A stretch of 42,835 nucleotides of DNA from NCBI GenBank assembly GCA_016201505.1, contig JACQCQ010000008.1, forward strand, positions 1-42,835, given 5' to 3'. The notes under the pieces were generated by a model. That model was not told the DNA's origin and did not search any database. It saw only the letters and a list, made by a program, of their open reading frames with translations. Below are positions 18,022-42,835 of this stretch, in pieces. A program made the translations under genes and the position numbers. Positions within the stretch are counted from its first letter, which is position 1; every line of letters begins with the position of its first letter. This DNA comes from Candidatus Sungiibacteriota bacterium. GTDB lineage: Bacteria; Patescibacteriota; Minisyncoccia; Sungbacterales; JACQCQ01.

Positions 18022-18603
18022 ATCTTTTACATCGTTATGGCCGCCCCGCACTTTTATTAGCTTTTGAGCTAATAAAAGTGCGGGGAGGAAAGTCCGAACA
18101 CTTGACTCTTACATGAGTTGTCGTGATAGCGGCTAACGGCCGCCCCGAGTCGTGCATGGCATGGAAATTCGAAATTCGAAACCCTAAATTCTAAACAAAT
18201 TCGAAAACTCAAAACTTCGAAATTCAAAACGTTTAGGATTTAGCAATTAGGATTTAGGATTTGCGCGCTGTGCGCGGCCAAAGGTGAAAAGTAATCCGCG
18301 AAGGATTTCTCGTGATTGGTAACAGTCACGAGTGGAAAACCCTATCTAGTGCAAGGACAAACACCGTGCATGGCGCGGAAATTCGAGATTCGAACCCCTA
18401 AATTCTAAACAAATTCGAAAACTCAAAACTTCGAAATTCAAAACGTTTAGGATTTAGAAATTAGGATTTAGTGTTTCCGCGCCGTGCGCGGTGACAAGTA
18501 GTCCGCTCGACCCCGAGAGTAATCGAGGGGCTAGACAGATGGCCATACCGGCAAATGAAAATTTTGCCGAGAACAGAATTCGGCTTATGAATGTAACAAG
18601 ATA
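18022..18603 (+). ncRNA. rnpB: RNase P RNA with two ~126-nt hairpin insertions
   Basis: GAGGAAAGTCCGAAC near 18085 and AACAGAATTCGGCTTAT near 18572 (P4); P2 TATGGCC/GGCCATA; long P3 hairpin; ends approximate. Confidence 0.9.
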
Positions 18604-23772: not shown

Positions 23773-24570
23773 TTATCTCAAATACCCGACTTGCTTTAAC
23801 CAATAGTCATTCTCCCACTCCCAAAGAGTTTTGGCGGCGAGAAAGGCCTTGGCGTCGCGGTAATAATAGGGAAACTCTTTTAGTTCGATATCCCCTTCCG
23901 GCCCATTAAACTCATGCTCCGCTTCCGGACAGGGCTTCACTGCATTTCGTCTGCCATTTCTGATTTTGGACCTTCCGCCTTTTTCGCGAAGCTTGGCGCC
24001 ACATTTTTTGCAGACCGAATGCTGATTGATACGCAAGATCCAGCGCGTTTCTACGGCCCGAGTAAGCCCCAGGGCTTTTTTCATCTGATACTCTTGCAAG
24101 GCCTGAATGTAGGCCGCAGTCTGCAAATTATATTCGGGATAAAATCCGGGCGAGGTTTTTATATCCAGCACGCCGAACTTCCCATCAATGATGCAAAGCG
24201 CATCGACAGTCCCCGCATAGCGGTGTGACCTGGACCAAATTTGTTTTTCAATATACTCGGGAATAAATTCCATCTTCCGTTCTTCGTTAAATTGCATAAG
24301 TGTTTCCAGGGCGGCGGCAAATTCGGGCGGGATCTCGACAGCTGCACCGGTTAAAAGTTTTTGGGCAGTTTCATGAATCAGCGAGCCTTCTTCGGCTGAT
24401 TTATTCTTTACCTCTTCGGCTGATTCATACGAGCCCATCTCGCGAAAAAATGAATCGAGCGCAGGCTTTGATTTAATATCCAAAATCTTGGTAACCCGCG
24501 GATACCAAACCCCGTCAATGTGATATCCCATCTCCTCTTTAAATTTATTGCCGTCAGAAAACCATCCCAT
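23773..24570 (-). CDS. PD-(D/E)XK nuclease superfamily protein
   Basis: YPRVT.IL, GS.IH, YAGTVD, LDIKTS, QTAAY; C-terminal CxxC..C..H. Confidence 0.8.
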   Translation of the reverse strand: MGWFSDGNKFKEEMGYHIDGVWYPRVTKILDIKSKPALDSFFREMGSYESAEEVKNKSAEEGSLIHETAQKLLTGAAVEIPPEFAAALETLMQFNEERKMEFIPEYIEKQIWSRSHRYAGTVDALCIIDGKFGVLDIKTSPGFYPEYNLQTAAYIQALQEYQMKKALGLTRAVETRWILRINQHSVCKKCGAKLREKGGRSKIRNGRRNAVKPCPEAEHEFNGPEGDIELKEFPYYYRDAKAFLAAKTLWEWENDYWLKQVGYLR

Positions 24571-24767
24571 TAGAAAATTAATCAGTTTAACTTTGGTAAT
24601 GCTTACACGTATATTCAGTATAGCAGTTTACTAACATATTCCTTATCATTTTAATTTTCTAACGGGATAATCCCGTTAGAAAATTAATCAGTTTAACTTT
24701 GGTAATGCTTACACGTATATTCAGTATAGCAGTTTACTAACATATTCCTTATCATTTTAATTTTCTA
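24566..24767. repeat. Tandem pair of CCC(A/G)TTAGA elements (101 bp plus a truncated copy)
   Basis: 24566-24666 and 24672-24767 are near-identical; TIR CCCRTTAGAAAATTAA / TTAATTTTCTAACGGG. Confidence 0.9.
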
Positions 24768-24918
24768 GAGTTCAAACGGACCTCGCTTATTCGTGTAGCT
24801 ACCTTTACTACCCCTATTGTGCTGGTTGAGGCGTTTCCGCAAGTCGGCAGTGAACCCGGTATAGAATCTGTTTGATTTTAAGCTTCTCAGTACATAGACA
24901 TAGAACATAGATAGGTCT

Positions 24919-29304: not shown

Positions 29305-29587
29305 ACCGGGTAGTATAAATTTGGCTATTTTTTTGATTATAGCAGAATTCTTTCAACATACGCTTTAATAGTCTAGCGCCCTGACTCGTTTTTAAATAGT
29401 GCCCTCTTCGCTTCGCATCTGATTCATTCAAATAGGCTTCGTAATGAATCAAATGCCAGGGCGCGTAAGGCTCGGTAGACTTATTCTTTTTGGAATTATG
29501 TTCCACGATTCTTTTTCTTAAATCTTTTGTGTAACCAACGTAGAGTCCATTCGCTCTATTTTGTAAAAGATAGATATAGTGGAACAT
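29297..29587 (-). CDS. GIY-YIG nuclease family protein
   Basis: YIYLL..LYVGYTKDLRKRIVEHN..ST..PW.LIHYEAY. Confidence 0.9.
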   Translation of the reverse strand: MFHYIYLLQNRANGLYVGYTKDLRKRIVEHNSKKNKSTEPYAPWHLIHYEAYLNESDAKRRGHYLKTSQGARLLKRMLKEFCYNQKNSQIYTTRYA

Positions 29588-34593: not shown

Positions 34594-35859
34594 CTAGTCA
34601 TATTCGCGCATCACGAGCTGCGCATCCACTTGCTTCATGGTCTCGAGAATTACCGAGACCACAATGAGTAACGCCGTACCACCGAGCGTAATGGCTTTAA
34701 TGCTTAGAAGATTTTGAATAATTAGGGGCAGAACCGCAATCGCGCCAAGAAATAAGGCGCCGGCCAGCGTAATGCGCGAGAGAATTTTAGAAAGATACTC
34801 TGCAGTCGGACGCCCCGGCCGAATGCCTAAAATAAATCCGCCTTGTTTTTGGATGTTTTCTGAAATGGCACCGGGATCAAAGGTGAGGCCGGTGTAGACA
34901 TAGGTGAAGGCAAATACCAAAAGAAAATAAACCGCGGCATAAATCCAGGTATTATTGAAGGCTGCAATCAAGAAATGCGAGGTTGCTTGCGCCCAGCCGG
35001 CACTCACCCCGGCTAAAATATTTCCCACTAGTCCCGGAAATAATACAATCGAGATCGCAAAAATAATCGGAATAACGCCGGCCTGATTGACGCGCAACGG
35101 CAAATGCGTCGAGACGCCGCCATAAACGCGCATGCCGCGGACACGCTTGGCATACGAGACCGGAATATTGCGCTGGCCTTCTGAAATTAAGACGACGCCG
35201 CCGATCACAGTTAAGGCAACGATTAAGAAAACGAGATAAACCGGAACCTGCGAGGGATCAAACGTCGTTAATGCATTTCCGAAGTCGCTCGGGAGACGCG
35301 AGACGATACCAGCAAAAATCAAAAGCGAAACACCGTTCCCAATTCCCTTTTCCGTGATCAATTCACCCAGCCACATCAAGACCAGCGTCCCGGCAGTCAC
35401 TACCGCAATATTTGTGAGAAATCCAAAGGGCGTTAAATGCGGCAAAACCTGCTTACGGATAAGTAATATCAGAAGTCCGTAGGACTGCAAAATGGCGAGC
35501 GGCACTGTGAGTATCCGCGAATACTGATTGAAGCGCTGGCGGCCGGCCTCACCCTCTTCCTGGTAGATTTCTTTGAGCCGCGGGAAAATCATCGTCAGCA
35601 ACTGCATAATAATCGAGGCCGTAATATAGGGCCCGACACCGAGCATGACAATCGAAAGATTATTTAAAGCACCACCCGAGAAAATATTTAAGAGGCCGAA
35701 GAATTGATTTCCCTGAAAAAATGAGCGAAGGCGGGTAGGATCAACCCCCGGCACAGGAATGGCGGCGAACAAGCGGAATACGACGAGCATCCCCAAAATA
35801 AACAGGAATTTGTTGCGAAGTTCAGGGGTTGTTACGATTTGTTTTAATTTTTGCAACAT
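34594..35859 (-). CDS. secY: Preprotein translocase SecY
   Basis: LGVGPYITASII, GIGNGVSL, AGVIPIIFA, GIRPG. Confidence 0.97.
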   Translation of the reverse strand: MLQKLKQIVTTPELRNKFLFILGMLVVFRLFAAIPVPGVDPTRLRSFFQGNQFFGLLNIFSGGALNNLSIVMLGVGPYITASIIMQLLTMIFPRLKEIYQEEGEAGRQRFNQYSRILTVPLAILQSYGLLILLIRKQVLPHLTPFGFLTNIAVVTAGTLVLMWLGELITEKGIGNGVSLLIFAGIVSRLPSDFGNALTTFDPSQVPVYLVFLIVALTVIGGVVLISEGQRNIPVSYAKRVRGMRVYGGVSTHLPLRVNQAGVIPIIFAISIVLFPGLVGNILAGVSAGWAQATSHFLIAAFNNTWIYAAVYFLLVFAFTYVYTGLTFDPGAISENIQKQGGFILGIRPGRPTAEYLSKILSRITLAGALFLGAIAVLPLIIQNLLSIKAITLGGTALLIVVSVILETMKQVDAQLVMREYD

Positions 35860-35861
35860 GG

Positions 35862-35970
35862 AGTAATCTCTAATATACGAATACACACCAAATACACAAA
35901 TAACATACCGGCATATTCGATACTCGTTTTAGCATACTCGTATATTTTGCCAGAATTTGTATATTCGCGA
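35862..35970. repeat. Short-period repeat hairpin insert at the rplO/secY junction
   Basis: AATATACGAAT..AAATACACAAAT ... ATTTGTATATTCG. Confidence 0.65.
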
Positions 35971-36405
35971 TTACTTCCTCACTGATCCTCCAGCATTCTC
36001 GATCATGGCGCGGGCACTCTTCGAAACCGGAATGCCAACCAATGAAAGATTCTTAGACATGGGAGTATTGCCAAGAATCTTTACCCGCGGCAGTTTCCCG
36101 TTTCTGGTTGAAATCATCTTCTTGCGAGCCAAGTTTCTCATTGAGACGATGTCGCCTTTGGCGAAGGCATCCTCAAGTCTCGTAAGCGAGATGGCCACGA
36201 CCGGCGTCTGAAACGAGCGGAACTTATAGCCGCGAAGCTTGGGGATACGTTTAATAACATCGCGCATCTCCGGCCGAATTTTATGCCCGGCGCGAGCTTT
36301 TTGGCCTTTCGTACCGCGGCCAGCGGTAGTCCCCCGTTTTCCGCCGCGCCCGACCCTCTGGCCGCGGCGTAAATGTTTACTTCTTTCTAGTGAATAGAGT
36401 TGCAT
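35971..36405 (-). CDS. rplO: 50S ribosomal protein L15
   Basis: RVGRGGKRGTTAGRGTKGQKAR. Confidence 0.95.
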   Translation of the reverse strand: MQLYSLERSKHLRRGQRVGRGGKRGTTAGRGTKGQKARAGHKIRPEMRDVIKRIPKLRGYKFRSFQTPVVAISLTRLEDAFAKGDIVSMRNLARKKMISTRNGKLPRVKILGNTPMSKNLSLVGIPVSKSARAMIENAGGSVRK

Positions 36406-36408
36406 GTG

Positions 36409-36891
36409 TTATTCAAATGACTGTAATTGCTTTAACGCCTCGATGGTCGCTCTGGCATTGTTTAATTTGTTGGCTGATCGGGAGATAATTTTTGAAGTCA
36501 GATTCTGAATGCCGGCGAGATTGGCGACAGTTCGCACGGGACCGCCAGCGATAAGTCCGCGGCCTTCAGAGGCTGGGCGGAGCTTTACGATAGCGCTGCC
36601 ATATTTAGCCATGACGTCATGGGCGATACTGCCTGCTTTCGTAATTGGGACTTGCAGCATATTGCGCTTGGCGTTACTCGCCGCCTTATCGATTGAAAGA
36701 GCAACGTCAGCGCCTTTGCCAATCCCAACCGCAACGCGCCCCTTTCGGTTTCCCATCACAATAGTAGTACGAAAACTAAATCGGCGGCCGCCTTTTACGA
36801 CACGGGCAACACGCCGGATATCCAGCGTCTTCTGATCGTATTCGGACCGTTCTCTTGGCGGTCCTTGTCGTCTAAATTCACGTCGTGCCAT
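36409..36891 (-). CDS. rpsE: 30S ribosomal protein S5
   Basis: RVARVVKGGRRFSF. Confidence 0.96.
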   Translation of the reverse strand: MARREFRRQGPPRERSEYDQKTLDIRRVARVVKGGRRFSFRTTIVMGNRKGRVAVGIGKGADVALSIDKAASNAKRNMLQVPITKAGSIAHDVMAKYGSAIVKLRPASEGRGLIAGGPVRTVANLAGIQNLTSKIISRSANKLNNARATIEALKQLQSFE

Positions 36892-37083
36892 GCCTTTGAT
36901 GTCTAAATTTGTAAAGTCCCTGCTGTAGCAAATGTAGCCGCGGCCAAGAGCACCCAGCCAAGTTTTTCAGCGGCTGTATGCCCACCTTGAAATAGCAAGT
37001 TATCATAGCTGAAAAACTTGGGCGGGTAAAGGTTTTGTGACATAATTTTTTTCATAGTCAGGCAAAAATTCTGACAAAGCCCT
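36892..37083 (-). repeat. CCCGCCCAA hairpin element filling the rplR/rpsE junction
   Basis: GGGCTTTGTCAGAATT...CCCGCCCAAGTTTTTCAGC-loop-GCTGAAAAACTTGG. Confidence 0.85.
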
Positions 37084-37455
37084 TTAAAATGCTAGTCCAG
37101 CTTTACGCGCCGCATCGGCTAAGGCTTTAATCCGACCATGATATTTATATCCGCCGCGATCAAACACAACCGCTTTTATCTTTTTCTCCAAAGCTTTTTT
37201 AGCAATCTCGGCGCCGACATAGGTTGCTCGTTCGATCGGGGTTGGTTTCTTCTTTCCCCCTGCTCTTTTCATTGCGTCATGGGCTGAAACAATGGTTTTC
37301 CCTACCGCGTCATCAATAATTTGAGCATACATATGCTTCCCAGAGCGGAAAATTGAAAGACGGGGCAGAGTTCGGCTCACAGCGCGAAGTTTGAAGCGGG
37401 TCCTTCGCGCGCGCGTTTTTTGCTGTATTCGTTTTCGTGATGAAGTAAGTCCCAT
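37084..37455 (-). CDS. rplR: 50S ribosomal protein L18
   Basis: [25 protein letters not shown]. Confidence 0.96.
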
Positions 37456-37460
37456 ATGAG

Positions 37461-37588
37461 TTAAACCCTAAATCCGAAATTCAAAATACGAAACAAATTC
37501 AAAGCTCCAAACTCGAAACGTTTTTGATTTTGGACTTTTATGATTTTCATATTTGTTTAGGATTTAGGATTTCGTGCTTTGGGTTTTT
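37461..37588. repeat. Heptamer-repeat hairpin insert at the rplF/rplR junction
   Basis: AAACCCTAAATCCGAAAT ... TTTAGGATTTAGGATTTCG; same family as the rnpB and lepA inserts. Confidence 0.85.
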
Positions 37589-37589
37589 A

Positions 37590-38135
37590 CTACGCAGCGC
37601 CCGTTGAGGCTTTCTTACCGGCTTTGCGGCGGATCGTCTCGCCCAGGTAATGAATCCCTTTGCCTTTATAGGGCTCGGGCTTTTTAAGGCTCCTGATTTT
37701 GGCAGCCGTCTCGCCGACCGCATCTTTACTGAAACCAGAAACCGTAATCACGTTTTTTTCTACTTTAAATTGAATCCCGTCGGGCGCATCAAACATAACC
37801 GGATGCGAAAATCCAAGCGCGAAAACTAAATTCTTGCCTTCCAAATTTACTCGATATCCCACACCCTCCAACTCCAATTTTTTTTCAAATCCTTTCAAGA
37901 CTCCTTCAATCGAGTGAGCCAGAATCGCGCGCGTTAGGCCCCAGAAAGCCTGAGTCTTTTTAGTTTTTTGTGCCGGGTTAATGAGGATCTGATTGTCTTT
38001 CACTGCCACTTTAATTTCCGGCCGGATGTGTCGAACAATCTCGCCTTTGGGGCCTTTCATTTTTACTTCGTCACCAGAAAGCGTGACGGTGACACCTCCG
38101 GGGACTGAGATCGGTTGTTTTCCAATGCGGCTCAT
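37590..38135 (-). CDS. rplF: 50S ribosomal protein L6
   Basis: MSRIGK, PEPYKGKGI. Confidence 0.97.
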   Translation of the reverse strand: MSRIGKQPISVPGGVTVTLSGDEVKMKGPKGEIVRHIRPEIKVAVKDNQILINPAQKTKKTQAFWGLTRAILAHSIEGVLKGFEKKLELEGVGYRVNLEGKNLVFALGFSHPVMFDAPDGIQFKVEKNVITVSGFSKDAVGETAAKIRSLKKPEPYKGKGIHYLGETIRRKAGKKASTGAA

Positions 38136-38526
38136 GCCAATTTTGTTGAAATTATTGAGTAAGGATGCCCGAACGAAAAGAATTGCGCTACAAAACTGAG
38201 CACCCGCCCAAGTTTTTCAACTGATGTGCATACCATTAATTTCGTATTTCTTGTTCGCATTTTCATTTCTTGATTCATAGTCTTGAAAAATTTGGGCGGG
38301 TAAAGGTTTTGTTGCATCATTTTTTTCATAGTCATTCAAAAATTCTGACAAAGCCCTTACCCCGCCCCAATCTAAACGACGTTCGACCGAACCATCAAGA
38401 TTATGAGCCGTCAGACGGCTTCGCCTTCCGTTATCATTTACCCCATCGTTCATGGTTGAGATTGGGGCGGGGTAAGGTTTTGGTATAAAATTTTGTTCGC
38501 TTCGCTCCATAATTCTAACAAAGCCC
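38136..38526 (-). repeat. Two tandem CCCGCCC(C)AA hairpin elements at the rpsH/rplF junction
   Basis: TAAGGGCTTTGT occurs at both about 38529 and 38359; two GC stems. Confidence 0.85.
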
Positions 38527-38925
38527 TTACCAAATTTCTGCTATAATTTCTCCGCCTAATTTTTTCTTTTTGGCTTCATCATTTGAGAGAACCCCGGCGG
38601 AAGTTGAAATCACCGCGATGCCATGGCCGTACTTTACCGGCCTAATTTCAGAGGCTTTGACATAGAGGCGGCGCGAGGGTTTTGAGATTCTGCGTCCTCC
38701 AGCGAATGCCGGAGTCCCATCTTTATACTTCAGTGATATCTCCATGAACTTTCGCGCTTTCTTTCCCTTCTTTTCAATGCCGGCAATATAGCCTTTCCGC
38801 TCTAAGACCTTGGCAATGGATTCTTTTACATTGGAATGCGGAACAACCACCGCCTCTTTCTTGGCCCGGTAGCCATTCTGTATTCGTATGATCATATCCC
38901 CGATGGGATCAGTTATGACTGACAT
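38527..38925 (-). CDS. rpsH: 30S ribosomal protein S8
   Basis: DPIGDMIIRI.N, ISKPSRR.Y, GGEII. Confidence 0.97.
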   Translation of the reverse strand: MSVITDPIGDMIIRIQNGYRAKKEAVVVPHSNVKESIAKVLERKGYIAGIEKKGKKARKFMEISLKYKDGTPAFAGGRRISKPSRRLYVKASEIRPVKYGHGIAVISTSAGVLSNDEAKKKKLGGEIIAEIW

Positions 38926-39157
38926 ATGCCAGTGCTCTCTAAATTTTAGAGTGATTTAACGAATAAAATTTAGTTGAGTCACTGAGCACCCCGCCCCAAT
39001 CTAAACGACGTCCAGCCGAACTGTCGGGGCTGTAAGCCGCCAGGCGGCTTCGCTGTAGATTGTCTGTGGTTTGGTAATTCATGGTTGAGATTGGGGCGGG
39101 GGAAGGTTTTGGCATAAATTTTGTTCGCTGTCGTGCTCCATAATTTAGACCAAGCCC
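38926..39157 (-). repeat. CCCGCCCCAA hairpin element at the rpsN/rpsH junction
   Basis: Homologous to 38357-38526. Confidence 0.85.
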
Positions 39158-39343
39158 TTACCAGGAAGATTTTTTAACTCCGGGAATTTCGCCGCGATTT
39201 GCGAGTTCCCGAAAACAAATCCGGCATAAATCAAAATCGCGCATATAGCCGTGCTTCCGTCCGCAGCGGAAACAGCGCCTGACTTTGCGGGATGAAAATT
39301 TCGGCTTCTTTTTGGACCTGGCGATAACTGAAGTTTTTGCCAT
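39158..39343 (-). CDS. rpsN: 30S ribosomal protein S14 (Zn-binding type Z)
   Basis: [24 protein letters not shown]. Confidence 0.96.
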
Positions 39344-39352
39344 CTTTTTGCT

Positions 39353-39413
39353 TATCGACTACTGACCACGGACTACCGCACAACTGTATGCCGTAGTCTG
39401 TAGTCAGTAGATA
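39353..39413. repeat. Heptamer hairpin at the rplE/rpsN junction
   Basis: CTACTGACCACGGACTAC ... GTAGTCTGTAGTCAGTAG. Confidence 0.75.
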
Positions 39414-39416
39414 CAG

Positions 39417-39953
39417 TTATGTCTGAATGGGAAAGCCTAAACTGCGAAGGAGCGACATGCCTTCTTCTTTTGTTCTGGCAGTTGTGACAATTGTAACTTC
39501 CAAGCCAAAAATAAATCGGACGTCTTCACCGATCATTTCCGGAAAAACAATATGCTCTTTGACGCCAATCGTCAAGTTGCCGCGGCCGTCAAAGGCCGTT
39601 GCCGGAATACCCTTAAAATCGCGTGTTCGGGGAAGAGCAATACCCACCAGTCTATCCAAAAATTCATACATGCGTGCCCCGCGTAGCGTCACCGAGTAGC
39701 CGATGATCTGCCCCAGGCGCGTCTTAAATGAGGCGATGGCCTTTTTAGCCCGGCGCGGTACCGCGTGCTGCCCCGTAATGGCGGACAAGGATTTTTGTAC
39801 AATCTCACGCTGCTTTTCATCGACGATACGGCCCACGCCGGAGTTTACAACTACTTTTATAATTTTCGGCACCGCCAAAATATTCGAGTATTCGAACTCT
39901 TTTTTTAGTGCCGGTATGGCTTCCTTTTGGTATCGTTCTTTTATAACTGACAT
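39417..39953 (-). CDS. rplE: 50S ribosomal protein L5
   Basis: VTLRG.RMYEFLDRL, RDFKG, FDGRGN. Confidence 0.97.
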   Translation of the reverse strand: MSVIKERYQKEAIPALKKEFEYSNILAVPKIIKVVVNSGVGRIVDEKQREIVQKSLSAITGQHAVPRRAKKAIASFKTRLGQIIGYSVTLRGARMYEFLDRLVGIALPRTRDFKGIPATAFDGRGNLTIGVKEHIVFPEMIGEDVRFIFGLEVTIVTTARTKEEGMSLLRSLGFPIQT

Positions 39954-40336
39954 GTCAGTGTGCTTAAAATTATTGAGTGAGTGAAGCGAACGAAAAGAAT
40001 TTCGCTACAAAAGTGAGCACCCCGCCCAAGTTTTTCAGCGGCCGTATGCTCACATTGAAACAGCACATCATCATGGCTGAAAAATTTGGGCGGGTAAAGG
40101 TTTGGTGTGCCGCATGAGGCGCAAACGACCATAGCGGCCGAGGCGGAAAATGAGGCAGGAATCTCAACAACCTCACCGCGTTTTCCTTCCTGCCGCGGGC
40201 GGATATGCTTTTTCTTTATATTGATGCCTTCGGCCAGCAGTCTCGCCTCCTTCGGCCAGACATGCAAAACCTTCGCGGTTTTGCCGCGATCTTTGCCGGC
40301 CATGATCTGAATCGTGTCGCCCTTTTTGATTTTCAT
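39941..40336 (-). CDS. rplX: 50S ribosomal protein L24, C-terminus replaced by repeat sequence from about 40103
   Basis: MKIKKGD..AGKDRGK; after CASCG the frame reads into the repeat (NLYPPKFF). Confidence 0.85.
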   Translation of the reverse strand: MKIKKGDTIQIMAGKDRGKTAKVLHVWPKEARLLAEGINIKKKHIRPRQEGKRGEVVEIPASFSASAAMVVCASCGTPNLYPPKFFSHDDVLFQCEHTAAEKLGRGAHFCSEILFVRFTHSIILSTLTCQL

Positions 40337-40473
40337 GCCAATTTTGTCGAAATTATTGAGTGAGTGAAGCGAACGAAAAGAATTTCGCTACAAAAGTGAG
40401 CACCCCGCCCAAGTTTTTCAGCGGCCGTATGCTCACATTGAAACAGCACATCATCATGGCTGAAAAATTTGGG
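40337..40473 (-). repeat. CCCGCCCAA element (partial), identical to 42699-42835
   Basis: 137-nt identity by eye. Confidence 0.9.
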
Positions 40474-40690
40474 CTTTGCGGCGATAGGAATTTCTCTGCC
40501 GGACAATCACCGCGCGGACCACATCTTTTTTCTTTACCTGCTTTCTGGGTTCTGCAATTTTAACCGAAGCCACGATAATATCCCCCAGCTGGGCGTATCG
40601 CCGTCTCGTTCCGCCCAGCACTTTAATGACCTGGAGCAGTTTGGCTCCAGAATTATCGGCGACTTGTAACATGGATCGCGGCTGAATCAT
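40454..40690 (-). pseudogene. rplN: 50S ribosomal protein L14, truncated at a repeat (likely assembly artefact)
   Basis: [19 protein letters not shown]; lacks the C-terminal ~50 aa (IRFD..RIFGPV). Confidence 0.85.
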
Positions 40691-40831
40691 ACCTAGTGTT
40701 ATAACTTCGGAAGGCCACTTGAGGCGACCAGCTGAAACCGATAGTTATCCTTTCGACTTTTTATCTTTATTCTGTACGTATTCTTTTCCATGATTGATAT
40801 TCTGCATCCGAAGTTATAACGACCGGGCATA
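40688..40831 (-). repeat. 144-bp TATG-flanked inverted-repeat element at the rpsQ/rplN junction
   Basis: GTTATAACTTCGGA / TCCGAAGTTATAAC; homologous to 41300-41443. Confidence 0.9.
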
Positions 40832-40834
40832 TAA

Positions 40835-41110
40835 TTATTCTTCTTCAGTAACGGCTGTATTTCCTTTTGATTCAAGGACTTCTACGACTTTCCAGCGTTT
40901 ATCTTTGGACAGGGGCCTGGTTTCCTGAATCTTGACCACATCGCCAACTTTAAGCGAGTTATCTTCATCATGCACCTTAAATTTGGTCGAACGCTTTTCG
41001 TATTTTAAATACTTAGGATTTTTTTTGAGGCGCGAAACCAAAACCACCGCAGTTTTCTGCATTTTGTTTGAAGCCACCGTGCCTTCTAATGTTCGGGGAT
41101 GCTTTTCCAT
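40835..41110 (-). CDS. rpsQ: 30S ribosomal protein S17
   Basis: [20 protein letters not shown]. Confidence 0.96.
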
Positions 41111-41119
41111 ATTACTGTA

Positions 41120-41302
41120 TTACTGTTCTCGAATAACGGTCAGAATTCTCGCGATATCTTTTTTGACTCCGGCAAGCGACTTTACGTTCTTTACTTTTTT
41201 TCGTTCAGTATCAAATCGCAGGGTCTCGACTTTGGCGCGAAGATCAAGCAGCTTGTTGGTTAACTCATCTTTTGTTTTTTTCCGCAGTTCAATGGCTTTC
41301 AT
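41120..41302 (-). CDS. rpmC: 50S ribosomal protein L29
   Basis: ELRKK..EL, KKDIARILT; operon position. Confidence 0.93.
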   Translation of the reverse strand: MKAIELRKKTKDELTNKLLDLRAKVETLRFDTERKKVKNVKSLAGVKKDIARILTVIREQ

Positions 41303-41443
41303 ACCCGGTGTTACAATTTCGGAAGGTCGCTCGGTGCGACCACCTGAAACCGATGGTTATCCTTTCGACTTTTTATCTTTATTCTGTGCGTATTCTTTTC
41401 CATGATTGATATTCTGCATCCGAAGTTATAACGACCGGGCATA
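41300..41443 (-). repeat. 144-bp TATG-flanked inverted-repeat element at the rplP/rpmC junction
   Basis: TATGCCCGGTCGTTATAACTTCGGA ... TCCGAAATTGTAACACCGGGTATG. Confidence 0.9.
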
Positions 41444-41839
41444 GACAAATCTCGTCTTCATGGGTAATTTGTGAGCCGCGCGCTCGAGCGCTTGCTCGGC
41501 CACTTCTTTCGTAACTCCATCCATCTCAAACAAAATCCTGCCGGGTTTTACCGGATAAACATAAAACTCGACACCGCCTTTGCCGCCGCCCATGGTTACC
41601 TCCGGTGGGCGTCTCGTGATCGGCTTATCGGGAAATACACGAATCCAGACTTTACCGCCGCGCTGAATATAGTGCGTGATGGCGCGACGTGCGGCTTCAA
41701 TTTGGCGCGCCGTAATCCAGCGTCGCTCAAGAGCTTTTAATCCGTAACTGCCATAGGCGAGTGCCGTCCCTCGAGTCTCAACGCCGGGAGAACGCATTTT
41801 TTGCCACTTTCTGTGTTTTACTTTTTTAGGCTGCAACAT
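41426..41839 (-). CDS. rplP: 50S ribosomal protein L16
   Basis: [30 protein letters not shown]. Confidence 0.97.
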
Positions 41840-41841
41840 AA

Positions 41842-42027
41842 TTATTCGCCATTCGTCGTTTGAAAATCGTTCACTCGCCCCGGCGCGGCTCGCTCACTCA
41901 CGTCCGCGCTCGCTCTTTTGCCTCGCAAAATCCAAGCCCGCGAGCACTCCCAAGTGTTTTCAAACAAGAATGTCTCACCGGAGGCTTTCTGAATGTAGCC
42001 CTTCGGGCTTTGATTCACATTAATCAT
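41842..42027 (-). other. Hairpin insert and 61-codon bridging ORF at the rpsC/rplP junction
   Basis: GTTTGAAAA...TTTTCAAAC stem with GCTCGCTC repeats; the ORF overlaps the rpsC stop and ends 2 nt before rplP. Confidence 0.6.
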
Positions 42028-42698
42028 ACATTTTTCTTTTCTTCAAAAATCTGGCCCTTATAAATCCAGACTTTGATGCCAATGACGCCGTAGGTGGTAT
42101 ACGCCTCTTTTTGAGCATAATCAATATGAGCACGCAGCGTCTGCAAGGGGATACGCCCCTTTTTAATCCATTCATAGCGAGCCATTTCCGAACCATCAAG
42201 CCGCCCCGAGATGGCAATTTTTACGCCTTCCACACCTTTGGACTGGATTACTTTTTCGGAGGTTTGTTTTAGAACGCGACGAAAAGGCAGACGTTTTTCA
42301 AGATCATCGGCGATCATCTGACCGACAATTGCCGCATGCGCTTCAGGCGTTTTTACCTCCTCGACGGTAAGTTTTAAGTCGCGCTTGTCAGCGGCCGCAT
42401 TTTTATTTATGCCGCTAATTTTTTTAGCAATTTCTTGTTTTAATTTTTCAGCCCACTCTCCCCCGCGGCCGATCAAAATTCCGGGACGTGAAGTCCGGAT
42501 GATGATATTCATGGTCGTGGGCGACCGTTCAATTTCGATGGCATCGATGTGTGCCGCTCTTAATTTTTTCCGCAGCCACTCGCGAACAACCGTGTCTTCG
42601 CGTAAATAATCTTTATATTTTTTTTCATTAAACCAGCGCGACTTCCAGGTCGTGTTAATGCCTAATCTGAAAATGTAGGGGTGGACTCGGTGGGTCAT
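42024..42698 (-). CDS. rpsC: 30S ribosomal protein S3
   Basis: VHPYIFRLG..W.SRWF, RPGILIGRGG, GRIPLQTLR, GIKVWI. Confidence 0.97.
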   Translation of the reverse strand: MTHRVHPYIFRLGINTTWKSRWFNEKKYKDYLREDTVVREWLRKKLRAAHIDAIEIERSPTTMNIIIRTSRPGILIGRGGEWAEKLKQEIAKKISGINKNAAADKRDLKLTVEEVKTPEAHAAIVGQMIADDLEKRLPFRRVLKQTSEKVIQSKGVEGVKIAISGRLDGSEMARYEWIKKGRIPLQTLRAHIDYAQKEAYTTYGVIGIKVWIYKGQIFEEKKNV

Positions 42699-42835
42699 GC
42701 CAATTTTGTCGAAATTATTGAGTGAGTGAAGCGAACGAAAAGAATTTCGCTACAAAAGTGAGCACCCCGCCCAAGTTTTTCAGCGGCCGTATGCTCACAT
42801 TGAAACAGCACATCATCATGGCTGAAAAATTTGGG
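42699..42835 (-). repeat. CCCGCCCAA element upstream of rpsC (runs off the window)
   Basis: Ends ...CGACAAAATTGGC directly before the rpsC ATG. Confidence 0.9.

Follow-up and report, generated by a model that had tools for sequence, protein, structure and literature searches.

Palindromic repeats fill most junctions of an S10/spc ribosomal-protein operon, and most of them carry short sense reading frames ending at the next start codon

Few gene arrays of bacteria are as conserved and compact as the S10/spc cluster. We analyzed its representative on a stretch of 42,835 nucleotides (nt) from a Candidatus Sungiibacteriota bacterium (GenBank assembly GCA_016201505.1, contig JACQCQ010000008.1, positions 1 to 42,835), in which nearly every junction between ribosomal-protein genes is filled by a hairpin-forming insert. 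This stretch, referred to as the window, is the complete contig C12 of a genome of 816 kb in 20 contigs obtained from groundwater metagenomes and designated G000. Other G numbers stand for genomes of relatives, L numbers for fetched loci, and C numbers for contigs of G000. On the minus strand of the window, the genes follow each other in the order rpsC, rplP, rpmC, rpsQ, rplN, rplX, rplE, rpsN, rpsH, rplF, rplR, rpsE, rplO, secY; rpmD is missing. An operon without the L30 gene in a genome of 816 kb looks like those of the candidate phyla radiation (CPR). The genes of the upstream half (tuf, rpsJ ... rplV) are located on contig C16, whose start overlaps the end of the window by 73 nt within a repeat, and the rebuilt rplV/rpsC gap measures 198 nt.

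The initial annotation of this DNA had described inserts at all junctions between rpsC and secY apart from rpmC/rpsQ and rpsE/rplO, and the measured gaps confirmed this. The two exceptions span 9 and 3 nt, respectively, whereas the filled junctions range from 73 to 391 nt: rpsC/rplP 184, rplP/rpmC 123, rpsQ/rplN 144, rplE/rpsN 73, rpsN/rpsH 232, rpsH/rplF 391, rplF/rplR 134, rplR/rpsE 192, and rplO/secY 111 nt. In 12 relatives from the same taxonomic order, most of these junctions measure only -4 to +20 nt, and the set of expanded junctions varies by genome. Therefore, the long gaps in G000 represent insertions. In each case, the flanking genes are on the same strand and belong to the S10/spc, alpha, or str operon. 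Positions 35800-39996 are spanned without differences or gaps by Logan contigs of two samples, one of which may be the source of the window. A Logan joint from 41824 to 42042 (depth 3-8, sides 23 nt) suggests that a relative with a compact rpsC/rplP junction co-occurs, but is too weak a signal to be used.

The inserts are palindromic repeats of about five families, plus singletons, and resemble transposable elements of the miniature inverted-repeat type (MITEs) in their inverted ends (by predicted folds), their small size, and their many copies per genome. Their stems comprise 14-22 bp, and 16 of 21 inserts fold with z ≤ -2, based on only 20 shuffles each. The inserts had been assigned to several unrelated families; several families do exist, but families A and C proved to be related by sequence. 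The combined family A/C is the largest, with 10 copies in G000, of which eight lie in S10/spc, one at rpsK/rpsD, and one upstream of nusA. Its 5′ module reads TAA-(A)GGGCTTTGTC... and its 3′ module ...AATTTCGACAAAATTGGC-ATG (ending GGC-ATG); the two are separated by a variable long stem-loop. All A/C copies that were read, 10 in G000 and nine in relatives, follow a stop codon, abut the next ATG, and are found in sense orientation. In the relatives, the family additionally occurs at secE/nusG, at rpoB/rpoC, and upstream of nusA. Sequence identity is 100% among three family A copies, one of which is interrupted by the end of the contig. The 3′ end of the element is common to six genome records, two of them of Candidatus Saccharibacteria; the pattern of the 3′ module also matched four Flavobacteriaceae records, possibly by chance. 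Family B has two copies, and family E has two copies plus a homologue at rplB/rpsS of G001. Family D is an A/T-rich palindrome present at 18 loci, 12 or 13 of which fill the stop-to-start gap of co-directional genes to within ~12 nt on each side. Elsewhere in the window, positions 18151-18491 hold two tandem 127-nt repeats with family D-like palindromes in a long non-coding stretch. A search of the inserts against Rfam gave no match at the gathering score and, at E ≤ 0.1, only one chance-level miRNA match.

Most inserts carry a short open reading frame (ORF) on the sense strand, termed mini-ORF in the following. All six mini-ORFs listed by the initial annotation are present at their positions and distances to the next ATG, and two further ones were identified in the family B inserts (Table 1). 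Contrary to the idea that the mini-ORFs bridge the inserts, two of them begin past the upstream stop, by 39 nt at rplF/rplR and by 35 nt at rplO/secY, and form no bridge. To quantify this arrangement, we scored sense ORFs with an ATG start and at least 20 amino acids (aa) that end in the interval reaching from 15 nt ahead of the next ATG to 4 nt past it. As controls, the interior of the inserts was either shuffled with preservation of dinucleotides or reverse-complemented, while the last 20 nt were kept native to avoid crediting stops that cluster near starts. The rplN/rplX and rplX/rplE junctions, which are misassembled (see below), were excluded from all counts.

At the ribosomal-operon junctions of at least 60 nt in G000, 16 of 22 harbor such an ORF, compared with 2.88 in shuffles and one in the interior antisense control. 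Inside the window, the count is 8 of 9 (shuffles 0.98, antisense 0); outside, it is 8 of 13 (shuffles 1.90, antisense 1, P 5e-5). Four same-family relatives gave 15 of 21 (shuffles 3.6, antisense 4) and their further junctions 5 of 7 (shuffles 0.5, antisense 1), adding up to 20 of 28 in the relatives. Among the metagenome copies in the matches listed, for which start calls were crude, 15 of 53 were positive (shuffles 4.3, antisense 7). The enrichment of sense mini-ORFs ending at the next start is thus borne out by both controls and repeats out of sample. Broken down by sequence family of G000, the ORF is present in six (A/C, B, D, E, rplD/rplW, and rplO/secY) and absent from four. Copies of family D show it at 6 of 6 ribosomal-protein or rpoA junctions versus 0 of 6 other junctions, the latter based on crude gene calls. 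The stops are mostly located 2-15 nt before the next start, with an ATGA overlap at rpsC, rplX, and rplF. In family A, two 1-nt indels offset each other, so that the frame stays in register with this ATGA, and the family E frames are open in all three diverged copies. The encoded peptide changes frame between copies while the frame remains open.

A second set of palindromes was found in the relative G038 (L041). Here, 17 of 19 measurable S10/spc junctions hold near-perfect palindromes (z -4.7 to -9.3) that belong to a few repeat families and lie flush with the start codons. The ribosomal genes of G038 are as poor in Shine-Dalgarno (SD) sequences as those of G000.

The A/C family is connected to genes of GIY-YIG proteins by its copy on contig C11 (69786-70215). 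Directly upstream of the nusA ATG, the A/C 5′ module, 20-nt stem arms, and the 3′ module enclose a 97-codon ORF that matches the GIY-YIG domain PF01541 (Pfam E 4.5e-12). The relative G003 carries a short, gene-less form upstream of its nusA. In the 816 kb of G000, we counted 16 GIY-YIG matches, several of them flanked by inverted arms of 10-14 nt and several located beside tRNA genes. An exact scan for the 5′ module recovered at least 120 metagenome contigs, and 80 loci (L084-L163) with 82 matches were analyzed. Among the 82 matches listed, 62 have an upstream ORF of at least 60 aa that terminates in frame at the TRA of the motif; ...attggc directly before the ATG, and similar sequences, are common 3′ ends. 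In five of these 82, the 5′ module is closely followed by a GIY-YIG ORF, and in all three loci examined of those five, this ORF sits between inverted arms of 17-22 nt. In L107, where every base was inspected, the element directly adjoins the ATG of the next gene. The GIY-YIG ORFs of such cassettes comprise 82-97 aa. At 40 of the 53 metagenome junctions tested from the matches listed, neither flank is in the ribosomal-protein reference set. No GIY-YIG ORF was found in the ribosomal-protein junctions of loci L001-L083, where a home-made hidden Markov model matched only two overlapping loci of the G000 nusA copy. By the modules and stem arms that they share with the surroundings of GIY-YIG ORFs in G000 and the metagenomes, the A/C inserts are putative empty shells of a hairpin cassette able to hold a bare GIY-YIG gene. 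The window also contains two small GIY-YIG frames apart from the operon: one at 29384-29581 and one with an in-frame TAG at 24744-24908, beside a 98-nt tandem duplication (24564-24661 and 24670-24767).

The genomic background agrees with the initial annotation in being SD-poor: SD-like 4-mers precede 48 of 438 long genes, compared with 40 of 438 in a control window. A short 16S motif gave no match in the G000 assembly. No Rho RNA-binding domain was found in G000, a genome rated 100% complete; without Rho, long untranslated spacers would not cause Rho polarity. RNase III is encoded. Promoter-like sites show no excess in the region (4 versus 8.3 in shuffles), and terminator-like sites are slightly commoner than in shuffles (16 versus 10.4, sd 3.3). 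In 11 of 21 G000 inserts, pairing is predicted between the first 25 and the last 25 nt, which places stop and start at the base of a closed hairpin. Predicted accessibility of the start region was mixed, with 0.15-0.67 unpaired and no clear pattern.

Table 1. Inserts and mini-ORFs at the S10/spc junctions of the window.
Junction and feature	Position	Strand	Remarks
rplV (C16)/rpsC, 3′ part of family A element	42699..42835	-	100% identical to 40337-40473; window ends inside element
Mini-ORF upstream of rpsC, 59 aa	ending at rpsC ATG	-	TGA overlaps rpsC ATG (ATGA)
rpsC/rplP, family E insert	41840..42023	-	homologous copies at rplB/rpsS in G000 and G001
rpsC/rplP mini-ORF, 61 aa	41842-42027	-	starts at ATGA on rpsC stop, ends 2 nt before rplP
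rplP/rpmC, family B insert	41303..41425	-	43-aa mini-ORF 41311-41442 ends 8 nt before rpmC
rpsQ/rplN, family B insert	40691..40834	-	43-aa mini-ORF 40699-40830 ends 8 nt before rplN
Upstream of rplX, family A element	40337..40473	-	misjoined to rplN codon 73; rplN 3′ half and element 5′ part absent from assembly
Upstream of rplE, family A element	39954..40107	-	misjoined to rplX; rplX C-terminus absent
rplE/rpsN, short strong hairpin	39344..39416	-	no mini-ORF; folding energy (dG) -34, z -8.1; related short repeats elsewhere in genome
rpsN/rpsH, family C element (A/C superfamily)	38926..39157	-	
rpsN/rpsH mini-ORFs	39079-39141; 38939-39082	-	first one 20 aa, joined via ATGA to the second, which ends 13 nt before rpsH
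rpsH/rplF, tandem C and A elements	38136..38526	-	
rpsH/rplF mini-ORFs	38217-38510; 38132-38335	-	97 aa; 67 aa, TGA of the latter overlaps rplF ATG
rplF/rplR, family D palindrome	37456..37589	-	
rplF/rplR mini-ORF, 29 aa	37461-37550	-	starts in apical loop, ends 5 nt before rplR
rplR/rpsE, family A element	36892..37083	-	50-aa mini-ORF 36903-37055 ends 11 nt before rpsE
rplO/secY, hairpin insert	35860..35970	-	21-aa mini-ORF 35870-35935 ends 10 nt before secY ATG at 35859

Two genes of the operon are interrupted in the assembly. Pfam L14 matched rplN at positions 1-73 of 122 only, and Pfam L24 matched rplX at positions 1-41 of 65 only; neither gene has a second copy in the genome. No Logan contig bridges the joins 40107/40108 or 40473/40474, where loose ends were found at 40107, 40108, and 40474. 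At the rplX break, Logan contigs continue as CGKPTRVGTKTS, the L24 continuation expected from relatives, and at the rplN break (40474) they continue as DGSYIRFDEN, as in the L14 of relatives. Since the contigs read on into the missing L14 and L24 C-termini and none bridges the joins, the truncation of rplN and rplX is a local misassembly, caused by collapse into identical 137-nt repeat copies. An intron or bypass reading of the interrupted genes was ruled out on the same grounds. Contigs of the element itself continue into a longer 5′ part of the repeat and have a depth of 23, compared with 9-13 for the flanks. Elements do sit at rplN/rplX and rplX/rplE, in spite of the wrong joins. Both genes serve as markers in ribosomal-protein phylogenies, and the G000 copies are defective for this purpose: identical repeats caused a silent misassembly.

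Some neighboring features deserve mention. At rpsC/rplP, where G000 has its family E insert, G001 (L033 3197-3490), G004 (L035 8429-8725), and G026 (L040 5078-5344) carry a DUF3850 gene of ~87-99 codons; in a Pfam search with 15 of the 64 insert frames of at least 55 aa from relatives, DUF3850 was the only family found (three matches, all at this junction). On C16, the place upstream of tuf where fusA was expected is taken up by ~2 kb of ORFs that have no relation to the operon (L045 6568-8400), and only an EF-G-like C-terminal frame was seen (L045 8608-8928). The rpsJ/rplC spacer on the same contig (L045 4155-4599, 445 nt) is predicted to fold very stably (dG -160, z -5.9), is 68% alike over 315 nt to the spacer of G004, and has no Rfam match. 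This junction is long (165-962 nt) in all 10 measurable relatives, some of which have a coiled-coil-like ORF in it.

Based on these observations, we think it somewhat probable that mobile palindromic repeats colonized the junctions, that sense frames were favored and aid ribosome delivery, and that the largest family consists of GIY-YIG cassette shells. According to this explanation, the repeats would colonize stop-to-start junctions of ribosomal-protein and transcription operons in a small-genome, SD-poor lineage without detected Rho, and would be co-transcribed with the operon. A ribosome on the mini-ORF may then melt the 3′ arm of the hairpin and, once released at the SD-less start, could either re-initiate or clear the way for initiation. 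Ribosome delivery through the 3′ arm to an SD-less start is the likely role of the mini-ORF, and copies with a terminal frame would be favored in the highly expressed operons of this organism family. The frame would be helpful and not required, and the peptide itself would have no function.

A number of results weigh against this explanation. Copies within a family are not independent, so that P values per junction exaggerate the case; by family, the ORF is present in about 6 of 10. At the TAA ... ATG flanks of A/C, no target-site duplication was seen in the copies read, for which there is no empty site from a close strain. To our knowledge, the small GIY-YIG protein is no transposase, and we know of no transposition mechanism for it. 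In G038, the 17 filled junctions contain no terminal ORF and no relay, and relatives outside the family show no ORF excess (7 of 46 versus 5.5 expected). The codon use of the mini-ORFs does not resemble that of genes (mean score per codon 0.009, versus ~0.2 in six of seven short real genes), and their frame ranks best of six by codon use in only 2 of 14 cases. Sense RNA is more stable than antisense RNA in 6 of 20 inserts and antisense RNA in 14 of 20. Since sense RNA is not the more stable one, the predicted hairpins look like a DNA-level property of the mobile element and not like selected RNA structure. Behind the stem of family A lies a weak terminator-like motif, and the outcome of the relay test, described below, belongs to the same list.

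Several of these points would also be expected if the mini-ORFs were idle baggage, with fresh initiation at unstructured SD-less starts and palindromes that fold out of the way. The ORF-free inserts of G038, the missing excess in relatives outside the family, the codon use, the lack of homologues found, and the predicted pairing of insert ends in 11 of 21 cases all fit this alternative. It leaves unexplained the ORF excess of 16 versus 2.9 shuffled and one antisense, which extends over six unrelated sequence families and out-of-sample junctions, the context difference of family D, and the two offsetting indels of family A. We consider it rather doubtful. The initial annotation had gone further in the opposite direction by proposing that inserts survive only if ribosomes are relayed across them by a stop-to-start chain of coupled mini-ORFs. 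Searching for chains of ATG-ORFs that run from no more than 20 nt off the upstream stop to no more than 20 nt off the next start, we found an unbroken relay at 9 of 21 junctions, compared with 2.14 in shuffles and two in antisense; moreover, the E and B copies and the rpmJ/rpsM copy, and only these, start near the upstream stop (-17 to +4 nt). However, 12 of 21 junctions have no chain, and with GTG and TTG starts the excess nearly vanishes (13 versus 7.4 expected and 7 antisense). The majority of the mini-ORFs begin 16-90 nt past the upstream stop, those of family D in the apical loop, so that initiation of their own would be needed. Only one of the seven extra junctions in G001 and G002 has a chain. 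G038 already contradicts the proposal: it is equally SD-poor, and its 17 inserts persist without any such ORF, which shows that a relay is not required for survival. A strict relay requirement is therefore very unlikely.

The hairpins could also be sites of RNA processing or stability, at which RNase III cuts the stems to yield separate messages. The stems of 14-22 bp and the presence of RNase III are compatible with this idea, as is the cleavage of Correia elements by this enzyme at their inverted repeats, described in PMC10969869. Against it stand the sense RNA, which is not more stable than antisense, and the strand-specific ORFs, which it does not explain; we regard it as unlikely, although it could act alongside ribosome delivery. 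That the mini-ORFs encode functional small proteins, or a source of de novo micro-peptides as suggested initially, found no support. Frames that stay open across the diverged family E copies would be in line with a coding function. Nevertheless, among five window mini-ORFs searched against Pfam at E ≤ 0.1, four had no match and one had a sub-threshold SpoIIE match (E 0.057), without any transposase; two of the peptides had no candidate homologue among 5.8 billion proteins; and the shifting peptide frame and the codon use likewise speak against proteins. A function of this kind seems extremely improbable to us.

Beyond the explanation by colonizing repeats and ribosome delivery, the data allow a tentative generalization, which we regard as possible but not probable. 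The operon junction may be the niche of undescribed "junction cassettes", composed of a post-stop module, a hairpin with or without a bare GIY-YIG gene, and an SD-less initiation module for the next gene, such that the spacer is replaced from stop to start. Gene-less derivatives would have spread to saturation in the essential ribosomal-protein operons of a single lineage and evolved mini-ORFs for ribosome delivery. If this were true, translation of most ribosomal proteins in these cells would depend on mobile-element sequences. In any case, mobile DNA is found in almost every S10/spc junction, yet all ribosomal proteins must be made in balance. The strand-specific mini-ORFs suggest that a leader ORF that delivers the ribosome is in natural, repeated use in an organism without SD sites and Rho, and initiation and coupling in such organisms become directly testable with reporters. 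The hairpin-enclosed GIY-YIG genes, together with the spread of the 5′ module over metagenome contigs, point to a widespread type of element.

Among known systems, the interspersed repetitive units of mycobacteria (MIRUs) are the closest precedent. MIRUs are short direct repeats, often in tandem, of SD-using actinobacteria, and the start of their ORF overlaps the upstream stop. Like the inserts described here, they are located between co-directional operon genes and next to start codons, with a sense ORF whose stop abuts or overlaps the downstream start. The inserts of G000 differ in being palindromes of about 70-390 nt that belong to several families and occur as single units, except for one tandem of C and A. 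Their ORF stops lie mostly 2-15 nt before the start, and an ORF start near the upstream stop is restricted to E, B, and rpmJ/rpsM. Furthermore, one family is tied to a GIY-YIG cassette, and nearly every ribosomal-protein junction is filled. The principle of a coupled repeat is already in print for MIRUs: PMC12548453, citing Supply et al. (1997), describes them as intercistronic mobile repeats with a sense ORF coupled to the downstream gene at a spacing of -4, and states that this coupling is thought to permit insertion with little effect on expression.

The inserts also resemble the MITE and palindromic repeats Correia/nemis, ERIC, REP/BIME, and RPE, which are summarized in PMC10969869 as small and non-autonomous, with inverted ends, transcription within operons, and hairpins that can affect mRNA processing. 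Small size, a non-autonomous nature, inverted ends, and the potential to form hairpins are common to both, and the inserts would likewise be transcribed within operons. Among the roles listed in this 2024 review of prokaryotic MITEs there is neither flush placement from stop to start nor strict sense orientation nor a delivery ORF, and the terms "translational coupling", "start codon", and "stop codon" occur 0 times in it. REP/REPIN sequences are GC-rich palindromes of 20-40 nt with a GTAG or CGTC tag (PMC3733652) and are linked to the RAYT transposase (PMC3337134). The inserts of G000 differ from them in size and sequence; RAYT was not searched for. In the literature searched, mainly at the level of abstracts, no paper tied Saccharibacteria or CPR bacteria to repeats of this kind.

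For the GIY-YIG cassette, the best comparison is with the seg genes of T4-like phages, described in PMC2988022 as free-standing GIY-YIG homing endonucleases between conserved genes, with hairpins at or around the gene start. A GIY-YIG gene in the intergenic gap of conserved genes and a hairpin at the gene start are common to both. The ORFs found here are only 82-97 aa long, represent the catalytic domain alone without a DNA-binding part, reside in a cellular genome, and, as far as the sequences tell, belong to a shell that has gene-less derivatives. The putative mode of action, finally, has a counterpart in synthetic bicistronic designs, in which the target gene is preceded by a short leader ORF that terminates at its start (PMC12548453). 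In both cases, the arriving ribosome would remove structure and deliver initiation, with the difference that those designs are engineered, whereas the mini-ORFs of the S10/spc junctions are natural and borne by mobile elements.

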